Positions 8,017 through 24,241 are shown, counted from the stretch's first letter. The stretch is 32,000 bases of DNA from an uncultured Chloroflexia bacterium (GCA_963704755.1 OY969938.1:4740001-4772000); one strand, 5' to 3'. Translations and numbers: made by a program. Notes: generated from the letters alone by a model not told the origin.

Positions 8017-8090
8017 AATTATTTGTAACTTCTCAGGCTTATCCCAAATTCGGTTTTCTTACCCGATCGACTGAGCAATTACAATTATTT
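8017..8090. mobile_element. Internally deleted copy (58 bp, 8025-8082) of the nested-palindrome MITE-like family, flanked by a perfect 8-bp direct repeat AATTATTT
   Basis: Termini are GTAACTTCTCAGGC (8025-8038) and GACTGAGCAATTAC (8069-8082), 11/14 complementary. AATTATTT occurs at 8017-8024 and 8083-8090. The interior keeps CCCAAATTCGG..TTTTC, which resembles the right half of the full-length copies. Confidence 0.65.
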
Positions 8091-13293: not shown

Positions 13294-13481
13294 GAGGAAA
13301 ATGTAATAAAGATACCTCATATTCGGGATCTTTACCTTTTGGGTTGAGCGGTACGGATACTTTTTATTTTCACCCCACGGGTATAAAATTACCCTGGCTG
13401 GTCTGAACAAGAGCGGAGCCGCCTGGCCTGCAATATCCGGGGCTTGCACAGCGAGCCCCACCTGCTCGGGTTAAGTGGTCC

Positions 13482-13515
13482 CGGAATTTGAGGTGCCATG
13501 ACACCTCAAATTCCG
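13482..13515. repeat. Short hairpin sharing the CGGAATTTGAGGTG / CACCTCAAATTCCG arms of the repeat family
   Basis: 14-bp perfect arms (13482-13495 and 13502-13515) with a 6-nt loop. The arm sequence is nearly identical to the inner hairpins at 15513-15567 and 20141-20194. No recognisable terminal inverted repeats surround it. Confidence 0.6.
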
Positions 13516-13572
13516 AGCATTTACCTGTTGGGCCAGGCAGCAATAATAAGAAAATTAAAAAGGAGGATTCAT

Positions 13573-14562
13573 ATGCGTGTTTTATTCATCGGTGGTACCG
13601 GAATAATCAGTACGGCCTGCACCAAGCTGGCCGACGAAATGGGGATGCAGGTGTATTTGCTCAATCGGGGCCAATCCACACGGCCTATCCCGGTGGGGGT
13701 GCAGGTGATCCAGGCTGACATTCGCAAACCAGAAACGGTCAGCCAGGCGCTAGGCGATATGACCTTCGACGCAGTGGTGGATTGGGTGGTGTTTACCCCG
13801 GAACAGCTCGAGCTCGACTTGGGGCTGTTCCGCGGGCGGACCGGTCAGTATATCTTTATCAGCTCGGCATCGGCCTACCAGACGCCGCCCGCGACCCTGC
13901 CGGTGACCGAATTGACGATCCTGGATAATCCTATTTGGAAATACTCCCAGAACAAGATTGCCTGCGAGGAAAGGCTGGTGCGGGCCTACCGCGAAGAGAA
14001 ATTCCCCATCACGATTGTGCGCCCCAGCCATACCTATGACCAGACCTCCATCCCTTTGAGCGGCGGCTGGACCGACCTGGACCGGATGCTCAAAGGCAAG
14101 CCGGTCATTGTGCCGGGAGATGGCACTTCCATCTGGGTCTTGACCCACAACTCCGATTTTGCCAAAGGGTTCGTGGGCCTGTTAGGCAATCCGCACGCCA
14201 TCGGCGAAGCGGTCCAAATCACCTCGGACGAGCTGCTCAACTGGAATCAGATCTACGAGCTGTTCGCTGGTGCCCTGGGCGTCAAGGCCGAGTTCGTCCA
14301 CATCCCTTCGGACCTGATCAACGCTTACGACCCGGAATGGGGCGCCGGGCTGTTGGGAGACAAATCCAACAGCATGATCTTCGATAACAGCAAATTGAAA
14401 CGGCTGGTGCCGGGTTTTGCCGCCTCGGTGCCCTTTGTACGTGGGGTAGAAGAGATGGTCACCTGGTACCGGCAGCACATCGACCACCAGGTGGTAAACC
14501 AAAACTTCAACCAGATGTGCGACCGGATTTTAACGGCTTACCGGTCCGCCTGGCCGAAGTAG
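13573..14562 (+). CDS. NAD-dependent epimerase/dehydratase family (extended SDR) protein
   Basis: Start moved to the ATG at 13573, which has an AGGAGG Shine-Dalgarno 6 nt upstream. The N-terminus MRVLFIGGTGIIS is a Rossmann GxxGxxG motif. The catalytic YSQNK (YxxxK) is present. Confidence 0.85.
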   Translation: MRVLFIGGTGIISTACTKLADEMGMQVYLLNRGQSTRPIPVGVQVIQADIRKPETVSQALGDMTFDAVVDWVVFTPEQLELDLGLFRGRTGQYIFISSASAYQTPPATLPVTELTILDNPIWKYSQNKIACEERLVRAYREEKFPITIVRPSHTYDQTSIPLSGGWTDLDRMLKGKPVIVPGDGTSIWVLTHNSDFAKGFVGLLGNPHAIGEAVQITSDELLNWNQIYELFAGALGVKAEFVHIPSDLINAYDPEWGAGLLGDKSNSMIFDNSKLKRLVPGFAASVPFVRGVEEMVTWYRQHIDHQVVNQNFNQMCDRILTAYRSAWPK

Positions 14563-14609
14563 ACTTTAGCTTTTGCCAATTTCCCCCTGCCTTTGGAGCT
14601 GGGGAGACT

Positions 14610-15455
14610 TTAACTCAGCAGCGTTTGAAGAACCGGGACGGGCTGGTTGAGTTCATCCTCGACCGATAAACCCGGTTCTTCGTTTTTATTTTTCCATTCC
14701 CAACTGTTCAGGTCGGAGATCAGGCGATAGGCTGTCAGGTCCAGTTGGATGGGAGTGATCGAAACGTAGCCTTCGCTCAGTGCGCCGAAATCGGTGCCGC
14801 GTTCGGCGATGCCCGTGGGCGATTCGCCGATGACCCAGTAGTACGGCCGGCCGCGCGGATCGGCGCGTTCGTCTACTTTGTCGTGGTACACGCGTAGTCC
14901 CATGCGGGTAATGCGCATGCCCTTGACCCGGTGAATGGGCAGGAAAGGCACGTTGACGTTCAACAGGTTTTCGGCCGGCAGTCCGTTGCGGATGCAGGCT
15001 TCGGCAACCAGCGCGGCGACTTCGCCGGCCGGCTTGAAATCGATAGTGCCCTGGTACGAGTCGGGCGTGTCGAGCGACATGGCGATGGCCGGCAGGCCCC
15101 AGATAGCGGCTTCCATGGCGGCGGTGACAGTGCCGGAATAGGTCACGTCATTGCCCAGGTTGGCATACGGGTTGATCCCGCTGACGACCAGGTCGACTTT
15201 TTCCTTGAGAAAGCCGCACACGGCCAGGGAGACGCAGTCGGAAGGCGCACCATCGCTGGCGTAAGCCGGGCTGCCGTCTTCCAAAACCACTTCGCGGACG
15301 CGCAGCGGCCGGTCGATGGTTTTGACATGCCCGGAAGCAGACCAGTTGCGGTCGGGGGCCAGAACAGTGACCTTTCCAAGGCTGCGCATGGCCTGGGCCA
15401 GCGTCAGCAAACCGGGAGAAAATACACCATCATCATTGGTGACGAGTATATGCAT
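14610..15455 (-). CDS. surE: 5'/3'-nucleotidase SurE
   Basis: 281 aa. The N-terminus MHILVTNDDGVFSPGL is the SurE signature. GINPYANLGNDVTYSGTVTAAMEA is also conserved. Confidence 0.9.
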   Translation of the reverse strand: MHILVTNDDGVFSPGLLTLAQAMRSLGKVTVLAPDRNWSASGHVKTIDRPLRVREVVLEDGSPAYASDGAPSDCVSLAVCGFLKEKVDLVVSGINPYANLGNDVTYSGTVTAAMEAAIWGLPAIAMSLDTPDSYQGTIDFKPAGEVAALVAEACIRNGLPAENLLNVNVPFLPIHRVKGMRITRMGLRVYHDKVDERADPRGRPYYWVIGESPTGIAERGTDFGALSEGYVSITPIQLDLTAYRLISDLNSWEWKNKNEEPGLSVEDELNQPVPVLQTLLS

Positions 15456-15485
15456 GATTTTTCCTTTCGTAAATAAACATTTTTA

Positions 15486-15596
15486 GTAACTGCACAGCCC
15501 AGAGGGAAGAAACCCGAATTTGAGGTGTATTCGTGGGCTTCGCCCACGAATACACCTCAAATTCGGGGACTTTTTCACAGGGTCCTGAGTAGTTAC
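15486..15596. mobile_element. Full-length (111 bp) nested-palindrome MITE-like element with a perfect 8-bp flanking direct repeat CATTTTTA
   Basis: Termini are GTAACTGCACAG.. (15486-) and ..CTGAGTAGTTAC (-15596). The inner hairpin has perfect 26-bp arms at 15513-15538 and 15542-15567 with a TTC loop. CATTTTTA occurs at 15478-15485 and again at 15597-15604. Confidence 0.7.
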
Positions 15597-15873
15597 CATT
15601 TTTATAACTTCCCAACCCGATGGATGCGACCTTCAAATTTGGAGTGCTTACCCATCCAGCCGGGTTGTTCCTATTGAAATAAAAATAGTGTGGGGTATGG
15701 TTCCTGACCCCACACTTGGAAAAGGAAGGAAGGAGATCCTTGGGTACTAGCCTGGAACGGATCGAAGGAATTTGATGGAGTAAGCAGCGATAAGAAATGA
15801 TCCATTCCATTAAAGATATGATAACCCGGACTTTTTCAAATCCAGAATAAGGCCAGGTTAATGGATTGTAAAA

Positions 15874-15934
15874 AGAGCCGCTGGGGGTGTTTTTTCACGT
15901 GTTTCACACGTGAAAAAACACCCCCAGCGGCTCT
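15874..15934. repeat. 61-bp perfect palindrome (28-bp arms, 5-nt loop) related to the inner hairpins of the repeat family
   Basis: AGAGCCGCTGGGGGTGTTTTTTCACGTG / CACGTGAAAAAACACCCCCAGCGGCTCT. The tip (TTCACGTG-TTTCA-CACGTGAA) parallels the tips of the 15513 and 16019 hairpins. It is followed by CTGAGTTG, which resembles the family's right terminus. No clear flanking duplication was found. Confidence 0.65.
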
Positions 15935-15992
15935 GAGTTGAGCTGATGCGATATAAAATAAATTTGGCTATTAGAGATAACGTTGATTATGT

Positions 15993-16104
15993 GTAACTGC
16001 TCAGGCTGGTTAAGAAGTAGAGAATGTTTTTGAAGATTTTCGTGTGGTTCGCACACGAAAATCTTCAAAAACACTCTCTTTCTATCGGGTAGCTGAGTAG
16101 TTAC
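15993..16104. mobile_element. Full-length (112 bp) nested-palindrome MITE-like element with a perfect 8-bp flanking direct repeat GATTATGT
   Basis: Termini are GTAACTGCTCAGGC (15993-16006) and AGCTGAGTAGTTAC (16091-16104). The inner hairpin is at 16019-16079 (about 28-bp arms with one mismatch, loop GTTCG). GATTATGT occurs at 15985-15992 and 16105-16112. Confidence 0.7.
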
Positions 16105-16173
16105 GATTATGTTAGTATTATACAGAGCAGGGTGAATGGAGTTTCATCAATTTATGCTGCAAAGGTAGAAAAG

Positions 16174-17682
16174 ATGGTCAATATAAAAGAACCTACCATA
16201 CTCGTTATTTTTGGCTGCATGGGTGACCTGACCTGGCGCAAACTGGCCCCGGCTGTGTTCAACTTGCTGCTTTCCCACGAACTGCCAGAGCAGTTTGCCA
16301 TCATCGGCCTGGATAAAAAAGAACAAAAACAGGATGAGTTCAATCAGCGGCTGCGAGATGGCGCCAGCCATTTCTGTGATTGCGGGCACGTAGGCGAAGA
16401 AGATTGGACCGCGATCGCCGCGAATTTATCTTTCATTTGCGGGGAGTTCGATGGCCCCGAGATTTACGCAGAGTTAAAAAAGCAGATCCGGGAGCGGGAA
16501 TCCGATTGGAAACAGCCAGTAAACAAAATATTCTATTTAGCCACCCCGCCCGGGATCATGGAGATGATTGTCCACGGGATCGGCGCTTCGGACCTGGCGC
16601 TGGACCGCGGACGGACCCGCATCGTGGTCGAGAAGCCTTTCGGGCACGACCTTGCCTCGGCGGAAGAGTTGAATTCGATGATGGCGGGGGTGTTCGAAGA
16701 GAACCAGATTTACCGCATCGATCATTACCTGGGTAAAGAAACCGTCCAAAATATCCTCGCTTTCCGTTTCGCCAACGCCTTGTTCGAGCCCATCTGGGAC
16801 CGGCGCTACATCGATAATGTGCAAATCACGGTAGCCGAGCAAGTAGGGGTCGAGCACCGCGGAGCGTATTACGAGCACGCCGGCGCGCTGCGGGATATGA
16901 TCCAAAACCACCTGATGCAGGTTTTATGCATGATGGCCATGGAGCCCATGGTTTCCTTCGAGGCGGATGAGATCCGCAACAAGAAAGTGGATGTGTTGCG
17001 CGCCATCCGCCGGATCAACCCGGACCAGGTCCATCAAGTGGCCGTACGAGGCCAATATGGCCCCGGGCGGATCGATGGAAAAAAGGTGCCGGGCTACCGT
17101 GACGAAGCCGGGGTGGCAGCGAATTCGTCCGCCGAGACTTTCGCTGCGCTCAAGTTATTCGTGGACAACTGGCGCTGGCAAGATGTGCCCTTCTATTTAC
17201 GCACGGGCAAACGCCTGCAGGAACGTGTATCCGAAGTGATCATCCAGTTTCGGCCAGTGCCGCACCAATCTTTTCCCAATTCGGCTACTTCGACCTGGCA
17301 GCCGAATCATCTGGCGATTCACATCCAGCCGCAGGAAGGGATTGTACTGGGCTTTCAGGCCAAGCACCCGGGCGCCAGCCTGCACCTCAGCCCGGTGAAT
17401 ATGGATTTCTCTTACCAGGAGACCTTCAAAGCCAGGTCGCCGGAGGCCTACGAGACCCTGCTGGCCGATGTGATGATCGGCGACGCGACCCTTTTTATGC
17501 GTTCTGACCAGGTCGAAAATTCATGGTCGGTGATCATGCCGGTCCTGGACCATTGGGCCAGTTCCACGCCATTCGAATTTCCAAACTATGCCTCCGGTTC
17601 GTGGGGGCCGCAAGGTGCGGATGAGCTGCTGGCTCGTGACGGCCGGCGCTGGCAGCAGATCGAAACCGAAGAAAAAGAATAA
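16174..17682 (+). CDS. zwf: Glucose-6-phosphate 1-dehydrogenase
   Basis: NADP-binding motif [14 protein letters not shown], substrate motif RIDHYLGKE, and VVEKPFGHD. The start is taken as the ATG at 16174 (MVNIKEPT...). The GTG at 16132 is an alternative. Confidence 0.9.
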
Positions 17683-17684
17683 TC

Positions 17685-17722
17685 GCAGCTACTCAGCCTT
17701 TCCCGTTAGGCTGAGTTGTTAC
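17685..17722. mobile_element. Possible minimal (38 bp) derivative of the repeat family, consisting of the two termini only
   Basis: GCAGCTACTCAGCC (17685-17698) and GGCTGAGTTGTTAC (17709-17722) form an 8-bp stem (ACTCAGCC/GGCTGAGT) with a 10-nt loop. The flanks are GAATAATC (17677-17684, includes the zwf stop) and CAATAATA (17723-17730), which share AATAAT. Confidence 0.4.
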
Positions 17723-17772
17723 CAATAATATATATTTGCGATAGCATCGCTATCGCAAATATATATTATTGG
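17722..17772. terminator. AT-rich 51-bp perfect palindrome between convergent zwf and the histidine kinase gene; candidate bidirectional terminator
   Basis: CCAATAATATATATTTGCGATAGC-ATC-GCTATCGCAAATATATATTATTGG, with 24-bp arms. The right arm contains the last two codons and the stop (17766-17768) of the minus-strand kinase gene. Confidence 0.5.
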
Positions 17773-19286
17773 CTGGGCAGCCAGATGGTGAAAATTGCGC
17801 CTCTCCCCTCGGCATTGGCGGCCGTTACACAGCCGCCGTAAGCCTGAGCAATCGAATACACGATCGCCAGGCCCAAACCGGTCCCAGAAGGAACGTTTTC
17901 GGCATCGCTGTCGTCGCGGGTGCGAGCCTGGTCGATGCGGTAGAAGCGCTCGAAGATATGGTCTACGTGTTCGGGGGGTATCCCTGGGCCGTTATCGCTC
18001 ACTTTCACCCAGGCGAATTTACCATTGCTGCGTTCCTGGACGCCGGTTTCGACGTTCACCCAGGCATCTTCGCCTTTGGCGTATTTGATCGCATTTTCGA
18101 CCAGGTTATTGATCATCTGGGTGAGGTAACTCCAATTGGCTTTGACGACCGCCTCGCCTAATTCTCCGGTGTGCAAATTGACCCCGTTCTGGGCAGCCAG
18201 GTAATTCAGGCGCTCCAACGAATCCAGGACCAGTTCGCTCAAATCGATTTCTTCATTGCGCAGGTTGGCCTGGCCGGAATCCATGCGGGCCAGAGTCAGC
18301 AGCTCGTTGACCAGGCGGCCCATCCACTCGTTCTCAGATTGGATCACCTGCAAGGCTTGCTCGTACTCGGCCGGGCTGCGTGGGTGTTCCAGCGCCCGGT
18401 TGGCTTCCAGCTCGATGATCGACAAAGGCGTGCGCAGTTCGTGGCTGGCATCGGCGGTAAACTGACGCTGGCGGACGAAGGCGGCTTCCAGGCGCTCCAG
18501 CATACGGTCAAAGGTAAGAGCCAGTTCGCCTAGCTCATCTTTGCGTTTGATATTCAGCCGGCGGCTTAAATCTTTCTCGCTGATATCTTCGGCCGTGTGG
18601 GTAATCAGATCGACCGGCTTCATAGCCCGGTCGGCCAGCCAGTACCCGCCGCCGAAGGCGGCCAGCAAAATAATCAAATCGATGATCCCCAGCACAACCG
18701 CCAGGGCATAGATCTGGCGGTTCGGGTCGATCGGCGCCCCCAAGATCAACAATCCACGCATCTGGTGTTCAACGGCCAGGGGAGTTACGTTGAAATAATA
18801 TTCATCGTTGCTGAGGTTTTGATCCGAATTGCCGGGATCGGTTCCGTGGTAAGCCAAGGGGTGATTGCCCCCGGAAGGCGATTGTTGCCAGGCCTTGACC
18901 ACGTTGTACAAATCCAGGTCGCTGATGTTGCCAATCTTTTGGGCGATGGTACCATCGGAGCCGACAATCGCCATGACCTGATCGCTGCCGATCAAGGGTT
19001 GGCCGTTGGTCGAAGGCACGGTCACCGCCTGGTTGGGATCGTCCGGATCGAAGGTCATGCGCAGCAGGCCTTCGTAGAACGTGGATAACTGGTTGGCCTG
19101 GGAGGAGAGCCGGGCAGCGGCCTCCGTCCGCATCAAGTGATACTGTCGATAGAAAACGGATACGCTGAAAGCGACCAGAATAACAGCCAATATCCCAACA
19201 AAATAAAGAGTCAGGCGGAAGCGGAAGCTGTGGAAGAAGCGGATGAAATTGGCCTTGGAGAAAAAAGACCGCACCCTTTTTCCCAT
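17766..19286 (-). CDS. Sensor histidine kinase (two TM segments, extracytoplasmic domain, HAMP, HisKA, HATPase_c)
   Basis: 506 aa. H-box ASHELRTPLSII, N-box NLVENAIKY, G1 DNGPGIP, G2 GTGLGLAIV. Its start codon directly abuts the stop of the upstream response regulator (TAGATG). Confidence 0.9.
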   Translation of the reverse strand: MGKRVRSFFSKANFIRFFHSFRFRLTLYFVGILAVILVAFSVSVFYRQYHLMRTEAAARLSSQANQLSTFYEGLLRMTFDPDDPNQAVTVPSTNGQPLIGSDQVMAIVGSDGTIAQKIGNISDLDLYNVVKAWQQSPSGGNHPLAYHGTDPGNSDQNLSNDEYYFNVTPLAVEHQMRGLLILGAPIDPNRQIYALAVVLGIIDLIILLAAFGGGYWLADRAMKPVDLITHTAEDISEKDLSRRLNIKRKDELGELALTFDRMLERLEAAFVRQRQFTADASHELRTPLSIIELEANRALEHPRSPAEYEQALQVIQSENEWMGRLVNELLTLARMDSGQANLRNEEIDLSELVLDSLERLNYLAAQNGVNLHTGELGEAVVKANWSYLTQMINNLVENAIKYAKGEDAWVNVETGVQERSNGKFAWVKVSDNGPGIPPEHVDHIFERFYRIDQARTRDDSDAENVPSGTGLGLAIVYSIAQAYGGCVTAANAEGRGAIFTIWLPSQ

Positions 19287-19976
19287 CTAATTTGCCTCAT
19301 TTTTTACCGGGCGAACCATACGATAACCCAGTCCACGGACGGTCTCCAGCAATTTTTGTTCAAATGGCTCGTCGATTTTGCGACGCAGCCGGCGGATGTA
19401 CACGTCGATCACGTTCGATCCGGAGACAAAATCGTAATTCCAGATATGGGTTTCGATCATCTCACGCGTGACCAGGCGGTCGGTATTGCGCATCAAATAT
19501 TCCAGCAAGGCAAATTCGCGGGTCGTCAATTCGATCATGATGTCTGCGCGTTTTACCTGGTGCGAAGCCGGGTCGAGCACCAGGTCGGCGATTTGCAGTT
19601 TCACCGATTTATCGGAAGCTTCCCGGCGCAGAAGAGCGCGTAAACGGGCACGCAGTTCGTTCATGGCGAAAGGCTTGACCAGGTAATCGTCAGCGCCACT
19701 GTCCAGGCCTTGCACGCGATCTTCTATCGCGTCCCGGGCGGTGAGCATCAGAATGGGGGTACTGACGTGCTGCCCACGCAGTTCCTTGCTGACCGCATAG
19801 CCATCCTTTTTGGGGAGCATCACGTCCAGGATGATCACATCGTAGGGGGTAACCAGGGCGTAGTCCAACGCCTCCTCACCATCGAATGTCGAATCGACGG
19901 CGTAACCATCTTCTTCCAGGGCGGTCCGCAACGAGACGTTTAGCCTGCGGTTGTCTTCAACTAACAAGATGCGCAT
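19287..19976 (-). CDS. OmpR/PhoB-family response regulator
   Basis: 229 aa. The receiver reads MRILLVEDN...DVIILDVMLPKKDG...KPF. The winged-helix output reads LTTREFALLEYLMRN...VIDVYIRRLRRKI...TVRGLGY. Confidence 0.9.
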   Translation of the reverse strand: MRILLVEDNRRLNVSLRTALEEDGYAVDSTFDGEEALDYALVTPYDVIILDVMLPKKDGYAVSKELRGQHVSTPILMLTARDAIEDRVQGLDSGADDYLVKPFAMNELRARLRALLRREASDKSVKLQIADLVLDPASHQVKRADIMIELTTREFALLEYLMRNTDRLVTREMIETHIWNYDFVSGSNVIDVYIRRLRRKIDEPFEQKLLETVRGLGYRMVRPVKNEAN

Positions 19977-20112
19977 AGAAAATTTCCTCTAAGGGTAAGT
20001 TGCGACCGGCTTGACCCATCCCAGCTTACCCTCAACCCTTATTTTTCGAATTGTTGCTTAATTTTACCCGGATTACATGAATAGCCGGTTAATCTTTTAA
20101 GGAAGAAGGGTT

Positions 20113-20223
20113 GTAACTGCTCAGCCTAAATGGGAAGATTTCCGAATTTGAGGTGTTTGCGGAGATTCACCCCCGCAAACACCTCAAATTCGGAGACTAA
20201 TTAAGAGAAGCCTGAGTAGTTTC
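20113..20223. mobile_element. Full-length (111 bp) nested-palindrome MITE-like element with a degenerate flanking repeat (GAAGGGTT / GAAGTTTT)
   Basis: Termini are GTAACTGCTCAGCC (20113-20126) and GCCTGAGTAGTTTC (20210-20223). The inner hairpin has 22-bp perfect arms at 20141-20162 and 20173-20194. The flanks at 20105-20112 and 20224-20231 match at 6 of 8 positions. Confidence 0.6.
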
Positions 20224-22874: not shown

Positions 22875-23516
22875 TTAAAGCCCTACGGCAGGCAGGTACA
22901 CTCCATCAAACTGCCCGCCGAGCATCCCGGCTTCATAGGAACGCCGGTCCACCCGTGAAAGCTGGGAGACCGTCTGCGGATCGATCAGGGGCAGGGATTT
23001 CCGTTTACAGAACCTGGTGATGATTTTATCGATGCCGGCCGGTTGTGTGGGCCAGTCGAAGCGGTCGAATTGGCTCAGGTCCAGGGGGATGGTGTATCTG
23101 CGTAGGGTCTTTTCGCCGTTGATATTGTAGAACCCTTCGAAATAGGACATGGCCAACTCGCGCAGCGAGCGGTAAACTGGCTCACGGAAACGCAGCCCGG
23201 CAAAATTCGACTTGGCAATTGCGCCGTAGCAGCGATTGACCTTGTAGATGGCCAGGGTATGGTCTTCATCCAGTGCAGGATCGGGGACGAGGTCGACCAG
23301 GTGAGGGCTAAAACCGGACTGGCTCAGTGCCAGAGCGGCAAAAATAGCCCCATCCTGGCAATAACACTGGCGATCCTTCAGAATTTGTAGGGGGGTGCGG
23401 TTCAGTTCTTCGCCTACGTAAGGGAGGCTGTCGAGGAACTGCTGAATGCGATAAGGCGTATCCAGCCCGGTAAAGAGCCGGCGGTCTTCATCTGATAATG
23501 CTTCAAGAAATCCCAT
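22875..23516 (-). CDS. Transglutaminase-like / papain-fold superfamily protein (function uncertain)
   Basis: Taken from the ATG at 23516 (214 aa, MGFLEALSDEDRR...). It has a candidate Cys...His pair (RQCYCQDGAIFAALAL ... DEDHTLAIYK) in transglutaminase-core spacing. The ORF-track N-terminal extension (to 23690) merely translates the intergenic repeats. Confidence 0.55.
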   Translation of the reverse strand: MGFLEALSDEDRRLFTGLDTPYRIQQFLDSLPYVGEELNRTPLQILKDRQCYCQDGAIFAALALSQSGFSPHLVDLVPDPALDEDHTLAIYKVNRCYGAIAKSNFAGLRFREPVYRSLRELAMSYFEGFYNINGEKTLRRYTIPLDLSQFDRFDWPTQPAGIDKIITRFCKRKSLPLIDPQTVSQLSRVDRRSYEAGMLGGQFDGVYLPAVGL

Positions 23517-23583
23517 GGCGGTCCTCCGTTTTGAGTATATCACGGCTTCTGTGGGTGGAGGAATGCACCAGGAAGAAGATAAA

Positions 23584-23655
23584 AACCACGGAGGCACGGA
23601 GTGCACGGAGAAGAAGGAAGCGTTCAACCACGGAGGCACGGAGCGCACGGAGAAA
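23584..23655. repeat. Two direct copies of a 30-bp unit (AACCACGGAGGCACGGAG[T/C]GCACGGAGAA) with a 42-bp period
   Basis: Copies at 23584-23613 and 23626-23655 match at 29/30 positions. A degenerate inverted copy lies at 23727-23754 (TTCTCTGTGAACTCTGTGTTCTATAGTT), and CTGTGGGTT recurs at about 23793. Confidence 0.7.
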
Positions 23656-24241
23656 AGAAAGAAAAAAAAACGAGAAGAAAAATATGCCATCTATTTTTTA
23701 TAGCAGTTACTTTTCTTCTTTTTCTTTTCTCTGTGAACTCTGTGTTCTATAGTTTTCTTTCTTGACAATTTTCACAGTTGTTCTGTGGGTTTTCCTCTTG
23801 AGAGCCGCTCGTATGTCGCCGTTTCATTCATTTCACCTTAACCCGCAACTATCAATATAGACCGGTGTTACTACGTTCAGGAATTTCCCTGGTTCGAATT
23901 ATAGGGGGATTCCAGCTAACGAAGAATACTGGTAACTTTGGCGGCCTGCGCGGGAAAGCGCTTTTTATGGCGGCCGAACCGTTACAAACGAATTCGGAAA
24001 TTTCGACAAAAATGCTGAAGCTGCGTCGCCAGTCCTGGGTCACTGGCGCTGATAGCGCAGATTCATCTGCCGGGTGAGCGAGCAATTGTTTTTTACCGAA
24101 AAACAAATCTTCCCTCTGCCTGGAATTGCCTAAAGACCAATGTAAATTTTCCGTGTTTGCGGGGAGCGGAAAAATGGTCAAATGCAGCATTTTTCTAATG
24201 AAAGAAGAAAAACATCCCTTGAATATCAGAGGAGTTTGAAT

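Follow-up and report, generated by a model that had tools for sequence, protein, structure and literature searches.

MITEs in the Window

The window is a 32,000-nt stretch of DNA from an uncultured Chloroflexia bacterium (GCA_963704755.1 OY969938.1:4740001-4772000). Among the 20 window ORFs scanned, 16 carry housekeeping-type Pfam domains, four have no significant domain, and none encodes a transposase. The spaces between these genes contain short elements (E1 to E5; no strand assigned) delimited by inverted repeats of GTAACTNCTCAGSC and its complement, and the terminal motif GTAACTGCTCAGCC is matched 12 times in the window compared with 1.9 expected. E2 (15486-15596) is a 111-nt MITE with the termini GTAACTGCACAGCC and GGTCCTGAGTAGTTAC and a perfect 8-bp target duplication, CATTTTTA, at 15478-15485 and 15597-15604. 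E3 (15993-16104), a MITE of 112 nt, has the same termini and a perfect 8-bp duplication of its own, GATTATGT, at 15985-15992 and 16105-16112, with a core unlike the family C core of E2. E1 (8025-8082; 58 nt) lacks a core but has termini as in the other members and is also flanked by a perfect 8-bp duplication, AATTATTT, at 8017-8024 and 8083-8090. In the MITE E5 (20113-20223; 111 nt), the right terminus has decayed to GTTTC; its flanks, GAAGGGTT and GAAGTTTT, agree at 6/8 positions. E4 (17685-17722) is a 38-nt remnant that runs from terminus to terminus (GCAGCTACTCAGCC...GGCTGAGTTGTTAC) without a core. A decayed short-form family C element with approximate outer boundaries lies at 13458-13545. 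Its left terminus has shrunk to CCACCTGCTCGGGT (8/14), its hairpin (13482-13515; centre GAGGTGCCATGACACCTC) matches a tip-less 92-nt subfamily, and its core is 96.7% identical to the cores of L131, L164, L186, and L203.

Related elements were found at no fewer than 240 loci, with many copies at unrelated loci, and over 100 family C relatives were recovered. All copies are intergenic, and they measure 38-131 nt; those of the window are 38-112 nt long and carry no transposase. Target duplications in family C are perfect in 42 of 90 copies and have one mismatch in 16 more. Each half of an element begins with the 14-bp terminal repeat, continues through some 15 nt of loosely conserved spacer, and ends in an arm of 19-28 bp; the two arms converge on a 3-nt centre to form a perfect palindrome. 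The halves are inverted copies of one end, with spacers that are 61% complementary compared with 48% after shuffling. Four core families were distinguished, A, B, and C having arms of 25-27 bp and D arms of 19-21 bp. Central perfect palindromes are present as well in Chloroflexota MITEs of other types, whose termini differ.

Central Palindromes

An inverted-repeat search of the window confirmed that the hairpins reported by the first-pass annotation are genuine and correctly placed, and the common offset of about 27 nt from the element end that it described is borne out by hairpin starts 26-28 nt inside. The E2 palindrome (15513-15567) has fully complementary 26-nt arms, CCCGAATTTGAGGTGTATTCGTGGGC, at 15513-15538 and 15542-15567, separated by a TTC loop with a C:G closing pair. 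Its centre, GCTTCGC, is the complement of the mini-hairpin GCGAAGC. The E5 palindrome (20141-20194) shares the family C base CCGAATTTGAGGTG and has 22-nt arms (20141-20162 and 20173-20194; 100%), its tip and loop being disrupted to leave a 10-nt loop. In E3 (16019-16079), the 28-nt arms (16019-16046 and 16052-16079) surround a 5-nt loop and are 96% complementary, so that one mismatch is present and the stem is not perfect. A stand-alone palindrome at 15874-15934 has 29-nt arms (15874-15902 and 15906-15934; 100%) and a TTC loop. ISBst12-type termini are not recognisable around it, its flanks being only weakly terminus-like, and it is at most a candidate relative of the MITE family. The hairpin at 13482-13515 can be read as 14-bp perfect arms around a 6-nt centre or as 17-nt arms at 94%. 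Another stand-alone palindrome, absent from the earlier list, lies at 17722-17772 (24-bp arms, 100%, ATC loop), adjoining E4 and overlapping the stop codon of a histidine kinase gene (17766-19286, minus strand). When folded as ssDNA, all six (three full-length elements and three stand-alone hairpins) give z-scores of -9.8 to -15.6 against shuffles.

When the window hairpins were compared, significant arm similarity was found only among E2, E5, and 13482, and differences between copies are therefore meaningful only for these three. The arms of E3, 15874, and 17722 have no demonstrable homology to them and no relatives among the loci listed (at least 240). The earlier treatment of E3 and 15874 as diverged copies of one hairpin is accordingly not supported, and E3, 15874, and 17722 appear to be palindromes different from the E2/E5/13482 family.

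Relationship to IS66-Family Insertion Sequences

Insertion sequences of the ISBst12 group within the IS66 family have inverted repeats that begin with GTAA and produce 8-bp direct repeats (PMC11946415). The window termini likewise start with GTAA and are accompanied by 8-bp duplications. ISDge4 of Deinococcus geothermalis, a member of the same group, has the terminal repeats GTGACTACTCAGCA and GTAACTGCTCAGCA and an 8-bp duplication (PMC12898284). An insertion sequence on the Geobacillus kaustophilus plasmid pHTA426 (L240:14107-15741) has the ends GTATCTATTCAGCC and GTAACTATTCAGCC with the duplication GACGAGTT on both sides, and it encodes a single 485-aa protein that matches PF03050 (DDE_Tnp_IS66) at 1.9e-64. 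Both resemble the window elements in their repeats, which start GTAAC/GTRAC and continue to CTCAGC, and in their 8-bp duplications; the pHTA426 end GTAACTATTCAGCC agrees with the window end GTAACTACTCAGCC at 13/14 positions. They differ in their interior, which is a gene in these insertion sequences and a central palindrome without a transposase in the window elements. As small, non-coding, multicopy sequences with terminal inverted repeats and target duplications of fixed length, whose termini match those of autonomous single-gene insertion sequences, the window elements are, on the evidence of their sequence, MITEs derived as non-autonomous forms from the ISBst12 group of the IS66 family. 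The transposase that mobilised them was probably of this kind and acted in trans from a gene outside the window, in a genome that is probably that of an Anaerolineae (Chloroflexota) bacterium. Neither the window nor the loci listed contained an autonomous partner.

The classical bacterial MITEs include the Correia elements, ERIC, RUP, and Nezha. The window elements share with these a short, non-coding, intergenic nature, terminal inverted repeats, target duplications, and an overall capacity to form hairpins. They differ in having IS66/ISBst12-type termini with 8-bp duplications and a sharply bounded perfect core between spacers that are only about 60% complementary. REP and BIME sequences, which are mobilised by RAYT, are also abundant intergenic palindromes whose stem changes tend to be compensated, but the window hairpins sit in elements that have terminal repeats and target duplications at their ends, features that REPs are not known to have. 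REPs have been described as imperfect palindromes of 20-40 nt, one end of which bears a GTAG or CGTC tag (PMC3733652). The window hairpins end in CCCGAA, AGAGAA, or AGAGCC and none carries either tag, so the REP/BIME class was rejected. What had been seen as a mixture of REP/hairpin-type and MITE-type features is better described as ordinary TIR/TSD MITEs whose halves are inverted copies of one end.

Mirrored Change in the Arms

The first-pass annotation had noted that differences between arms are mirrored on the opposite side, and this is upheld in a larger sample. Among 17 elements ascertained on their termini only, 38 arm positions are mirrored and four are unmirrored, and within the arm base alone the counts are 13 and 0. 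Pairing is kept in 97.4% of cells across 36 unique cores, in which 10 of the 12 variable pairs are altered on both sides. These cores contain 43 cells changed on both sides compared with 6.6 in shuffles, none of 500 shuffles reaching 43, and controls with slid partners give 3-10. Of the distinct mirrored states in this set, 12/18 are transversion pairs, for which no wobble intermediate is available. Mirrored indels (GATTGCGGGGTGC/GCACCCCGCAATC and GTGTTGCGGG/CCCGCAACAC) and mirrored 10-nt deletions that retain the TCATGA centre also occur.

Stem perfection is not universal. The earlier claim that perfect stems are preserved applies to 50 of 90 copies; a single error is present in 20 and at least two in the other 20. 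Numerous mismatched stems had been named as evidence against mirrored change, and about 45% of copies do have at least one mismatch, though mirrored change still far exceeds that in the shuffled and slid-partner controls. Together with the three mismatches of the L195 hairpin, this indicates that correction does not proceed rapidly in every copy. Of 16 single mismatches, 10 are G:T or A:C and six are of transversion type, and they cluster at the closing pair and beside the loop, where simple intramolecular switching should correct best. Hairpin errors do not correlate with how far target duplications and termini have decayed (rho 0.04-0.07, p > 0.5), decay being an imperfect proxy for age since ascertainment demanded an intact left terminus and left arm base. 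In the most decayed class, duplications and termini have 0.26-0.29 mismatches per site, as against 0.036-0.043 per hairpin pair. The process is not universal, as Proteobacterial relatives with the same termini have imperfect arms.

Loop Inversion and Tip Loss

Orthologous loci in assembled contigs reveal inversion of the loop in place. The L010 and L170 loci are 99.75% identical across 5106 aligned nt, and their element differs only by a GGA or TCC loop; for L138 and L202 the identity is 99.6% across 2132 nt, with TCC/GGA as the only difference within the element. Two of the four flip pairs are weak because of fold-back artefacts at contig ends, such as those at the ends of the metagenome contigs L133, L166, and L221. 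When internal copies only are compared at equal outer orientation, both loop forms occur (in family A, TTC in 10 copies against GAA in seven; in family C, TCC in seven against GGA in four). Gene conversion from an already flipped copy could be the source of flips at individual loci. L157 and L195 represent a further orthologous locus (94% identity), at which symmetric loss of the tip has produced a shorter perfect palindrome. The tip-less 92-nt subfamily is present at several loci, each copy with its own duplications, and the tip is therefore not needed for mobility.

Mini-hairpins of the type d(GCGNAGC) are known from some phage origins. Their stability and its dependence on the closing pair have been described in oligonucleotide biophysics (PMC13037366; PMC3201870). 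In the present elements, the loop is GNA or the complementary TNC in 39 of 50 unique hairpins, compared with 12.5% expected, and nearly all of these are closed by 5′-C...G-3′; the motif may thus have a role at the centre of MITE palindromes.

Probable Arm-to-Arm Copying and Alternative Explanations

The arms most likely remain complementary through repeated copying of DNA sequence from one to the other. The explanation considered reasonably probable is that these IS66/ISBst12-type MITEs are kept palindromic by copying at the DNA level, most likely through template switching and probably not through stepwise compensation of the RNA type. After one arm mutates, the nascent strand would occasionally take the other arm as its template, reaching it by fold-back or by copying across the fork, and the change would be either reverted or matched by its complement in the partner arm. 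The same switch events would also invert the 3-nt loop (flip-flop), transfer indels across the arms, and yield symmetrical tip deletions. The C:G-closed GNA/TNC loop, as a very stable mini-hairpin, would probably nucleate fold-back of ssDNA. No host or RNA function would be required. The first-pass annotation had proposed either selection on folded DNA or RNA or a palindrome-homogenising mechanism, and the latter is favoured by the in-situ loop inversion, the mirrored indels, the preponderance of transversion pairs, the symmetric tip deletion, and the constancy of errors with decay.

Quasipalindrome correction by template switching is described by the Ripley model and in Escherichia coli and yeast reporters, and comparative studies show that such switching homogenises the arms of inverted repeats and inverts spacers or loops (PMC5941160; PMC8794818; PMC8604942). 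Those systems and the present MITEs share perfect arms kept beyond neutral expectation, one-step mirroring of multi-base changes and indels, and inversion of the spacer or loop. Here, multi-base and indel differences are resolved to complementarity and the loop is inverted between otherwise identical alleles. The MITEs differ from earlier cases in having arms of 19-29 bp within a multi-copy mobile element of uncultured Chloroflexota, where the mechanism is inferred, as well as a flip frequency near equilibrium and GNA-type loops. A known replication error process would thus be visible, with unusual clarity, in a new MITE family.

Selection on a DNA hairpin or cruciform is an unlikely alternative, in which the folded core is required by a transposase or host factor, proliferation is limited to copies whose stems are intact, and mirrored differences are compensatory double mutants among master copies. 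Families A, B, and C differ in sequence yet share arm length and a 3-nt loop, which together with the enrichment of the stablest mini-hairpin motif and its required closing pair could reflect selection for a stable hairpin, and the palindromes of MITEs with other termini would fit. However, core-less E1 has a perfect target duplication, the tip-less subfamily continued to insert, loops inverted at orthologous loci without transposition, and hairpin quality holds steady while duplications and termini decay. Mirrored indels and transversion pairs are also improbable as independent double hits. Less probable still is that the GNA-capped hairpin is a functional ssDNA structure, used for fold-back priming or for recognition where transposition passes through a single-stranded or copy-out intermediate, with flip-flop and arm homogenisation as by-products of hairpin-primed synthesis in mobilisation or repair instead of ordinary replication errors. 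If so, a step that depends on the hairpin, and that has not been described for IS66-family transposition, would be common to the many types of Chloroflexota MITE whose palindromes have a 3-nt loop.

It is improbable to a yet greater degree that the hairpins are transcription terminators, mRNA stabilisers, or small RNAs paired through classical compensatory evolution. Their intergenic position, the A-runs and T-runs beside the stem in some spacers, the location of E4 and the 17722 hairpin between convergent genes, and a terminator scan that catches parts of the E2, E3, and 15874 hairpins are compatible with such a role. Against it, E2, the 15874 hairpin, E3, and E5 sit between divergently transcribed gene starts, and the scan found 10 terminator-like sites compared with 8.5 expected, so the intrinsic (rho-independent) terminator class was rejected. 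An Rfam 15 search returned no family at the gathering score, its sub-threshold matches being generic miRNA-precursor hairpin models. The elements also occur in both orientations, their loops flip, and transversion pairs prevail among mirrored states, with six of the single mismatches also being of transversion type. The least probable reading is that unrelated palindromes merely share MITE termini or proximity, or that flips and perfect stems are assembly artefacts. The isolated arms of E3, 15874, and 17722 and the fold-backs at contig ends lend it some substance, but E2, E5, and 13482 are clearly homologous and the family C relatives show graded mirrored variation. A k-mer longer than about 28 nt should already fix loop orientation because the spacers differ. 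In both robust flip pairs the nearest contig end is 750 nt or more away (over 2 kb in L010/L170), and the results persist when elements within 100 nt of locus ends are removed.

Elements with IS66/ISBst12-Type Termini

Allowing up to three mismatches, the motif GTAACTGCTCAGCC has 12 matches in the window where 1.9 are expected, and these matches pair into five terminus-bounded elements, numbered E1 to E5 from left to right. E2 (15486-15596), E3 (15993-16104), and E5 (20113-20223) are full-length, while E1 (8025-8082; 58 nt) lacks the central palindrome, or core, and E4 (17685-17722) spans 38 nt. Perfect 8-bp target duplications accompany E1 (AATTATTT), E2 (CATTTTTA), and E3 (GATTATGT). A full-text literature search with the terminal sequence of these elements led to ISDge4 of Deinococcus geothermalis, a member of the ISBst12 group of the IS66 family with terminal repeats GTGACTACTCAGCA / GTAACTGCTCAGCA, a single 449-aa transposase, and an 8-bp duplication (PMC12898284). 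IS66 repeats begin with GTAAGCG, and their duplications are 8 bp (PMC11946415). The annotated record of plasmid pHTA426 from Geobacillus kaustophilus holds a 1635-bp insertion sequence (L240:14107-15741; L-numbers denote loci fetched from genomes or metagenomes, with the position in the locus) that ends in GTATCTATTCAGCC / GTAACTATTCAGCC, has the duplication GACGAGTT on both sides, and encodes one 485-aa protein with DDE_Tnp_IS66 (PF03050, 1.9e-64) and zf-IS66 domains. The window termini are identical to the end of this insertion sequence at 13 of 14 positions, so the window elements are MITEs with IS66/ISBst12-type ends. The left spacer, between terminus and core, is 61% identical to the reverse complement of the right spacer, compared with 48% in shuffles. 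The element is thus one end in two inverted copies, with perfection limited to the innermost part.

Two-terminus elements were found in at least 118 loci through a scan of representative genomes conditioned on the two termini only. Among the matches listed, copies occur in Desulfobacterota, Gamma- and Zetaproteobacteria, Elusimicrobia, Armatimonadota, Acidobacteria, and Chloroflexota, the last including Anaerolineae, Thermoflexales, Caldilineae, and Dehalococcoidia. Interiors differ by lineage: the long inverted repeats of a 121-nt proteobacterial family are imperfect only, and several Chloroflexota families possess perfect cores with arms of 19-28 bp and, with few exceptions, a C:G-closed loop of 3 nt. 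These comprise family A (core CGCGAAAC..), family B (core CCCGAAAAAAGGGTG..), family C (core CCGAATTTGAGGT..), which takes in E2 and E5, and family D of Brevefilum. Genome bins assigned to Anaerolineaceae and Anaerolinea (L010, L073, L110) contain relatives of family C, which points to an Anaerolineae (Chloroflexota) origin of the window. The elements form a newly recognised, widespread MITE superfamily with IS66/ISBst12-type termini; literature searches found no paper pairing ISBst12 with MITE and nothing on Chloroflexi IS66 MITEs. In family A, ascertained independently of the core, the termini have a nucleotide diversity of 0.03-0.04 and the spacers one of 0.04-0.07; the value is 0 for the arm base (the outer part of the core), 0.12 for the tip near the loop, and 0.46 for the loop itself. 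Among family C copies, 42 perfect 8-bp target duplications (L120-L239) are 69% A+T in a region of about 55% G+C as judged by eye, with a purine or C preferred in position 1 and A in positions 2-3, suggesting an AT-rich target preference.

No transposase was detected by Pfam among 20 window ORFs, 16 of which contain housekeeping-type domains (TetR, epimerase, SurE, G6PD, two-component systems, ABC transporters, ApbE, and a KS-AT protein) and four no significant domain. An autonomous partner was sought in the window and the fetched loci, as pairs of terminal repeats separated by 250-6000 bp and sharing a duplication, through solo termini, and through the IS66 CWAH.RR motif in six-frame translations, and none of these searches returned one. 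Two candidates were rejected: L034:1400-3728 encloses housekeeping genes, and L063:5827-6834 is 1008 bp long with no convincing transposase ORF. The latter has the same termini at both ends and a perfect 8-bp duplication, GTATTTTT, and may be a larger non-autonomous relative.

Hairpins of the Window

An inverted-repeat search recovered every hairpin placed in the window by the first-pass annotation, which had described all stems as perfect. This holds at 100% complementarity for the hairpins of E2 (15513-15567; 26-bp arms, 3-nt loop) and E5 (20141-20194; 22-bp arms, 10-nt loop) and for a stand-alone hairpin at 15874-15934 (29-bp arms), but the E3 hairpin (16019-16079; 28-bp arms, 96%) has one mismatch. 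The stand-alone 13482 hairpin, previously assigned the range 13482-15515, does exist but extends from 13482 to 13515, with perfect 14-bp arms and a 6-nt centre. There is also a hairpin at 17722-17772 (24-bp arms, 100%), making six in all. As had been noted, the hairpin offset is shared: in E2, E3, and E5 the hairpin begins 26-28 nt inside the element end. Folding as ssDNA gave z = -9.8 to -15.6 against dinucleotide shuffles for all six sequences that contain a hairpin, namely E2, E3, E5, and the three stand-alone hairpins.

Significant mutual arm similarity is found among E2, E5, and 13482 only. The 13482 hairpin matches a tip-less 92-nt subfamily (GAGGTGCCATGGCACCTC), with strongly decayed termini on both sides. 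The only contig reached via the epimerase gene, 2.7 kb from the same strain (99.96% identity), shows no change at this hairpin. Orthologous contigs for the window MITEs, sought via the SurE, response regulator, and G6PD genes, are not on record. Homology of the E3, 15874, and 17722 arms to those of E2 and E5 is unsupported by arm comparison, and no relatives of these three cores were found in approximately 1.3 Mb of loci. Since the E3 and 15874 arms have no demonstrable homology to E2 and E5, the original five-way comparison mixes one true family (E2, E5, and 13482) with other palindromes. The 17722 palindrome lies between the convergent G6PD and histidine kinase genes and directly adjoins the MITE remnant E4; its right arm (17749-17772) extends into the kinase gene (17766-19286, minus strand), overlapping the stop codon and the final codon.

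Mirrored Change in a Larger Sample

Metagenomes were scanned for one terminus together with one arm base, leaving the opposite arm free, and this yielded at least 120 loci with at least 129 elements; the matches listed include 91 complete non-redundant elements with 60 unique cores. Among these listed matches, the stem is perfect in 50 of 90 copies, has one error in 20, and two or more in 20, and it is perfect in 40 of 76 once copies less than 100 nt from a locus end are excluded. Across 36 unique 53-nt cores, 97.4% of cells are paired and 10 of 12 variable pairs have changed on both sides. Both-side-changed cells number 43, compared with 6.6 in shuffles (0 of 500 reaching the observed value) and 3-10 in slid-partner controls.

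The cleanest sample consists of 17 family C elements ascertained by termini only, namely bystanders in the metagenome loci, genome-set copies, and window copies. Here, 38 arm differences from the consensus are mirrored and 4 occur on one arm only, so that the core observation of mirrored arm change stands, although not every difference is mirrored as first proposed. Within the arm base of these elements, 13 differences are mirrored and none unmirrored. The seemingly extreme conservation (pi 0.007) seen for the arm base CCGAATTTGAGGT was discounted, as it arises from ascertainment with a one-sided search pattern; variants of it are present in bystander elements, with 13 of 13 mirrored.

Probable Copying Between Arms

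The observation is real and robust, and is best explained by a new IS66/ISBst12-type MITE family whose central palindrome would evolve in concert through a known DNA-level copying process. Template switching between the arms of inverted repeats homogenises the arms and inverts spacers or loops, and it has been suggested to produce "compensatory" hairpin changes in a single step (PMC5941160, PMC8794818, PMC8604942). Among distinct mirrored states in the MITEs, 12 of 18 are transversion pairs (e.g., T:A to A:T, G:C to C:G, and G:C to T:A), which have no wobble intermediate. Indels are also mirrored (GATTGCGGGGTGC/GCACCCCGCAATC and GTGTTGCGGG/CCCGCAACAC), and the centre TCATGA is reached at three depths, after GGGTG, GCGTG, or GAGGTG, indicating 10-nt deletions in both arms. 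In the same outer orientation, the 3-nt loop of family A is TTC in 10 copies and GAA in 7, while internal copies of the GTAATT subfamily of family C have TCC in 7 and GGA in 4. The orthologous loci L010 and L170 (5106 nt aligned, 99.75%) differ within the MITE solely by GGA/TCC, and L138 and L202 (2132 nt aligned, 99.6%) solely by TCC/GGA. The L157/L195 insertion (94% identity) is older; of its two orthologous alleles, one lacks the tip through a symmetrical loss and has returned to a perfect palindrome (GAGGTGCGCGCACCTC).

Perfect stems and loop flips could also be read as assembly artefacts, which are present at the metagenome contig ends L133:24-136, L166:15-125, and L221:45-157, where symmetry is perfect and includes the flanks, probably through assembler fold-back at palindromes. 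These three elements were left out of the re-analysis. Artefacts weaken two of the four flip pairs, L134/L135 and L144/L235, which were set aside: in one the element is located at the end of its contig, and in the other a flank diverges. However, L010/L170 and L138/L202 are unaffected, with the MITE no closer than 750 nt to a contig end (over 2 kb away in L010/L170). A flipped state could spread from locus to locus through gene conversion between copies, but this would leave the first origin of flips and mirrored changes unexplained. An RNA role of the hairpins is unlikely. Divergent gene starts flank E2, the 15874 hairpin, E3, and E5; a scan of the window found no enrichment of terminator-like sites; and the window hairpins match no known RNA family in Rfam.

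The main rival is selection for a stable hairpin, of which the loop motif could be a sign. A GNA loop, or its complement TNC, occurs in 39 of 50 unique near-perfect cores with a 3-nt loop, where 12.5% is expected, and nearly all are closed by 5'-C...G-3'. The d(GCGNAGC) mini-hairpin has the same motif and the same C:G closing pair, on which its stability depends (PMC13037366, PMC3201870). The GNA loop probably favours fold-back of ssDNA and, through it, copying between arms. Errors in the hairpin do not track how far the target duplication and right terminus have decayed (Spearman 0.04-0.07, p > 0.5): copies in the class with most decay carry 0.26-0.29 mismatches per site in these parts but only 0.036-0.043 per hairpin pair. 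The tip-less subfamily and the core-less E1 had their own target duplications at insertion, so the paired tip is dispensable for mobility. On these sequence comparisons, we favour copying between arms over selection on structure.

Support for a template-switch origin of "compensatory" changes comes mostly from reporter genes and ancestral reconstructions. The Chloroflexota copies provide a natural dataset in which concerted arm evolution is read directly as mirrored substitutions, mirrored indels, symmetrical deletions, and loop flip-flop, and these MITEs could act as natural reporters of template switching in uncultured bacteria. Covariation in a stem, taken alone, is no evidence for a selected RNA structure.

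Related Elements

At 23586-23745 in the window, ACCACGGAGGCACGGAG(T/C)GCACGGAGAA occurs twice in direct orientation; next come a purine-rich run and, beyond it, an imperfect inverted partner, CTCTGTGAACTCTGTG, with a terminus-like AGCAGTTAC at approximately 23702-23710. This region may be another decayed element, overlapping an ORF without a Pfam domain (22875-23690). Heptamer-repeat interiors (CACAGAG/CACAAAG and complements) also occupy the terminus-bounded MITEs L006:2989, L030:789, L082:6934, and L107:3392.

Many copies of the 121-nt Gamma- and Zetaproteobacteria family have a third, outer terminal repeat approximately 31 nt outside one end, in the layout GTAACTACTCAGC + ~19 nt + GTAACTGCTCAG... 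(L029:5998-6149, L032:15-157, L087:6854-7006, L092:412-563, L094:1703-1856, and L119:251-402). In an Acidobacteria bin, the whole of L004:3105-3227 is a perfect palindrome with 48-bp arms, and complementarity runs 27 nt past the termini, so that the flanks are inverted rather than direct; no target duplication is visible. Farther out the flanks are unrelated, meaning that the contig is not a fold-back, and the element may represent outward palindrome extension. Family C variants of 127-131 nt have an additional mini-hairpin, CCCCCGAAGTGTGGGGG, within their right spacer, with a repeat of the adjacent TGA (L130, L141, L195:2904-3034, L204:2592-2722, and L191, with two tandem copies); it is absent from L157, the allele orthologous to L195.

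The palindrome architecture is not confined to ISBst12-type termini. Chloroflexota MITEs with other termini (GGTATCTTCTCAATAA.. and CTAAGT..) also contain central perfect palindromes with 3-nt loops (L009:4343-4381, L048:1695-1733, and L069:7008-7048; L055:609-653 and L078:5466-5510), and in one pair of these the difference is AAA versus TTT.
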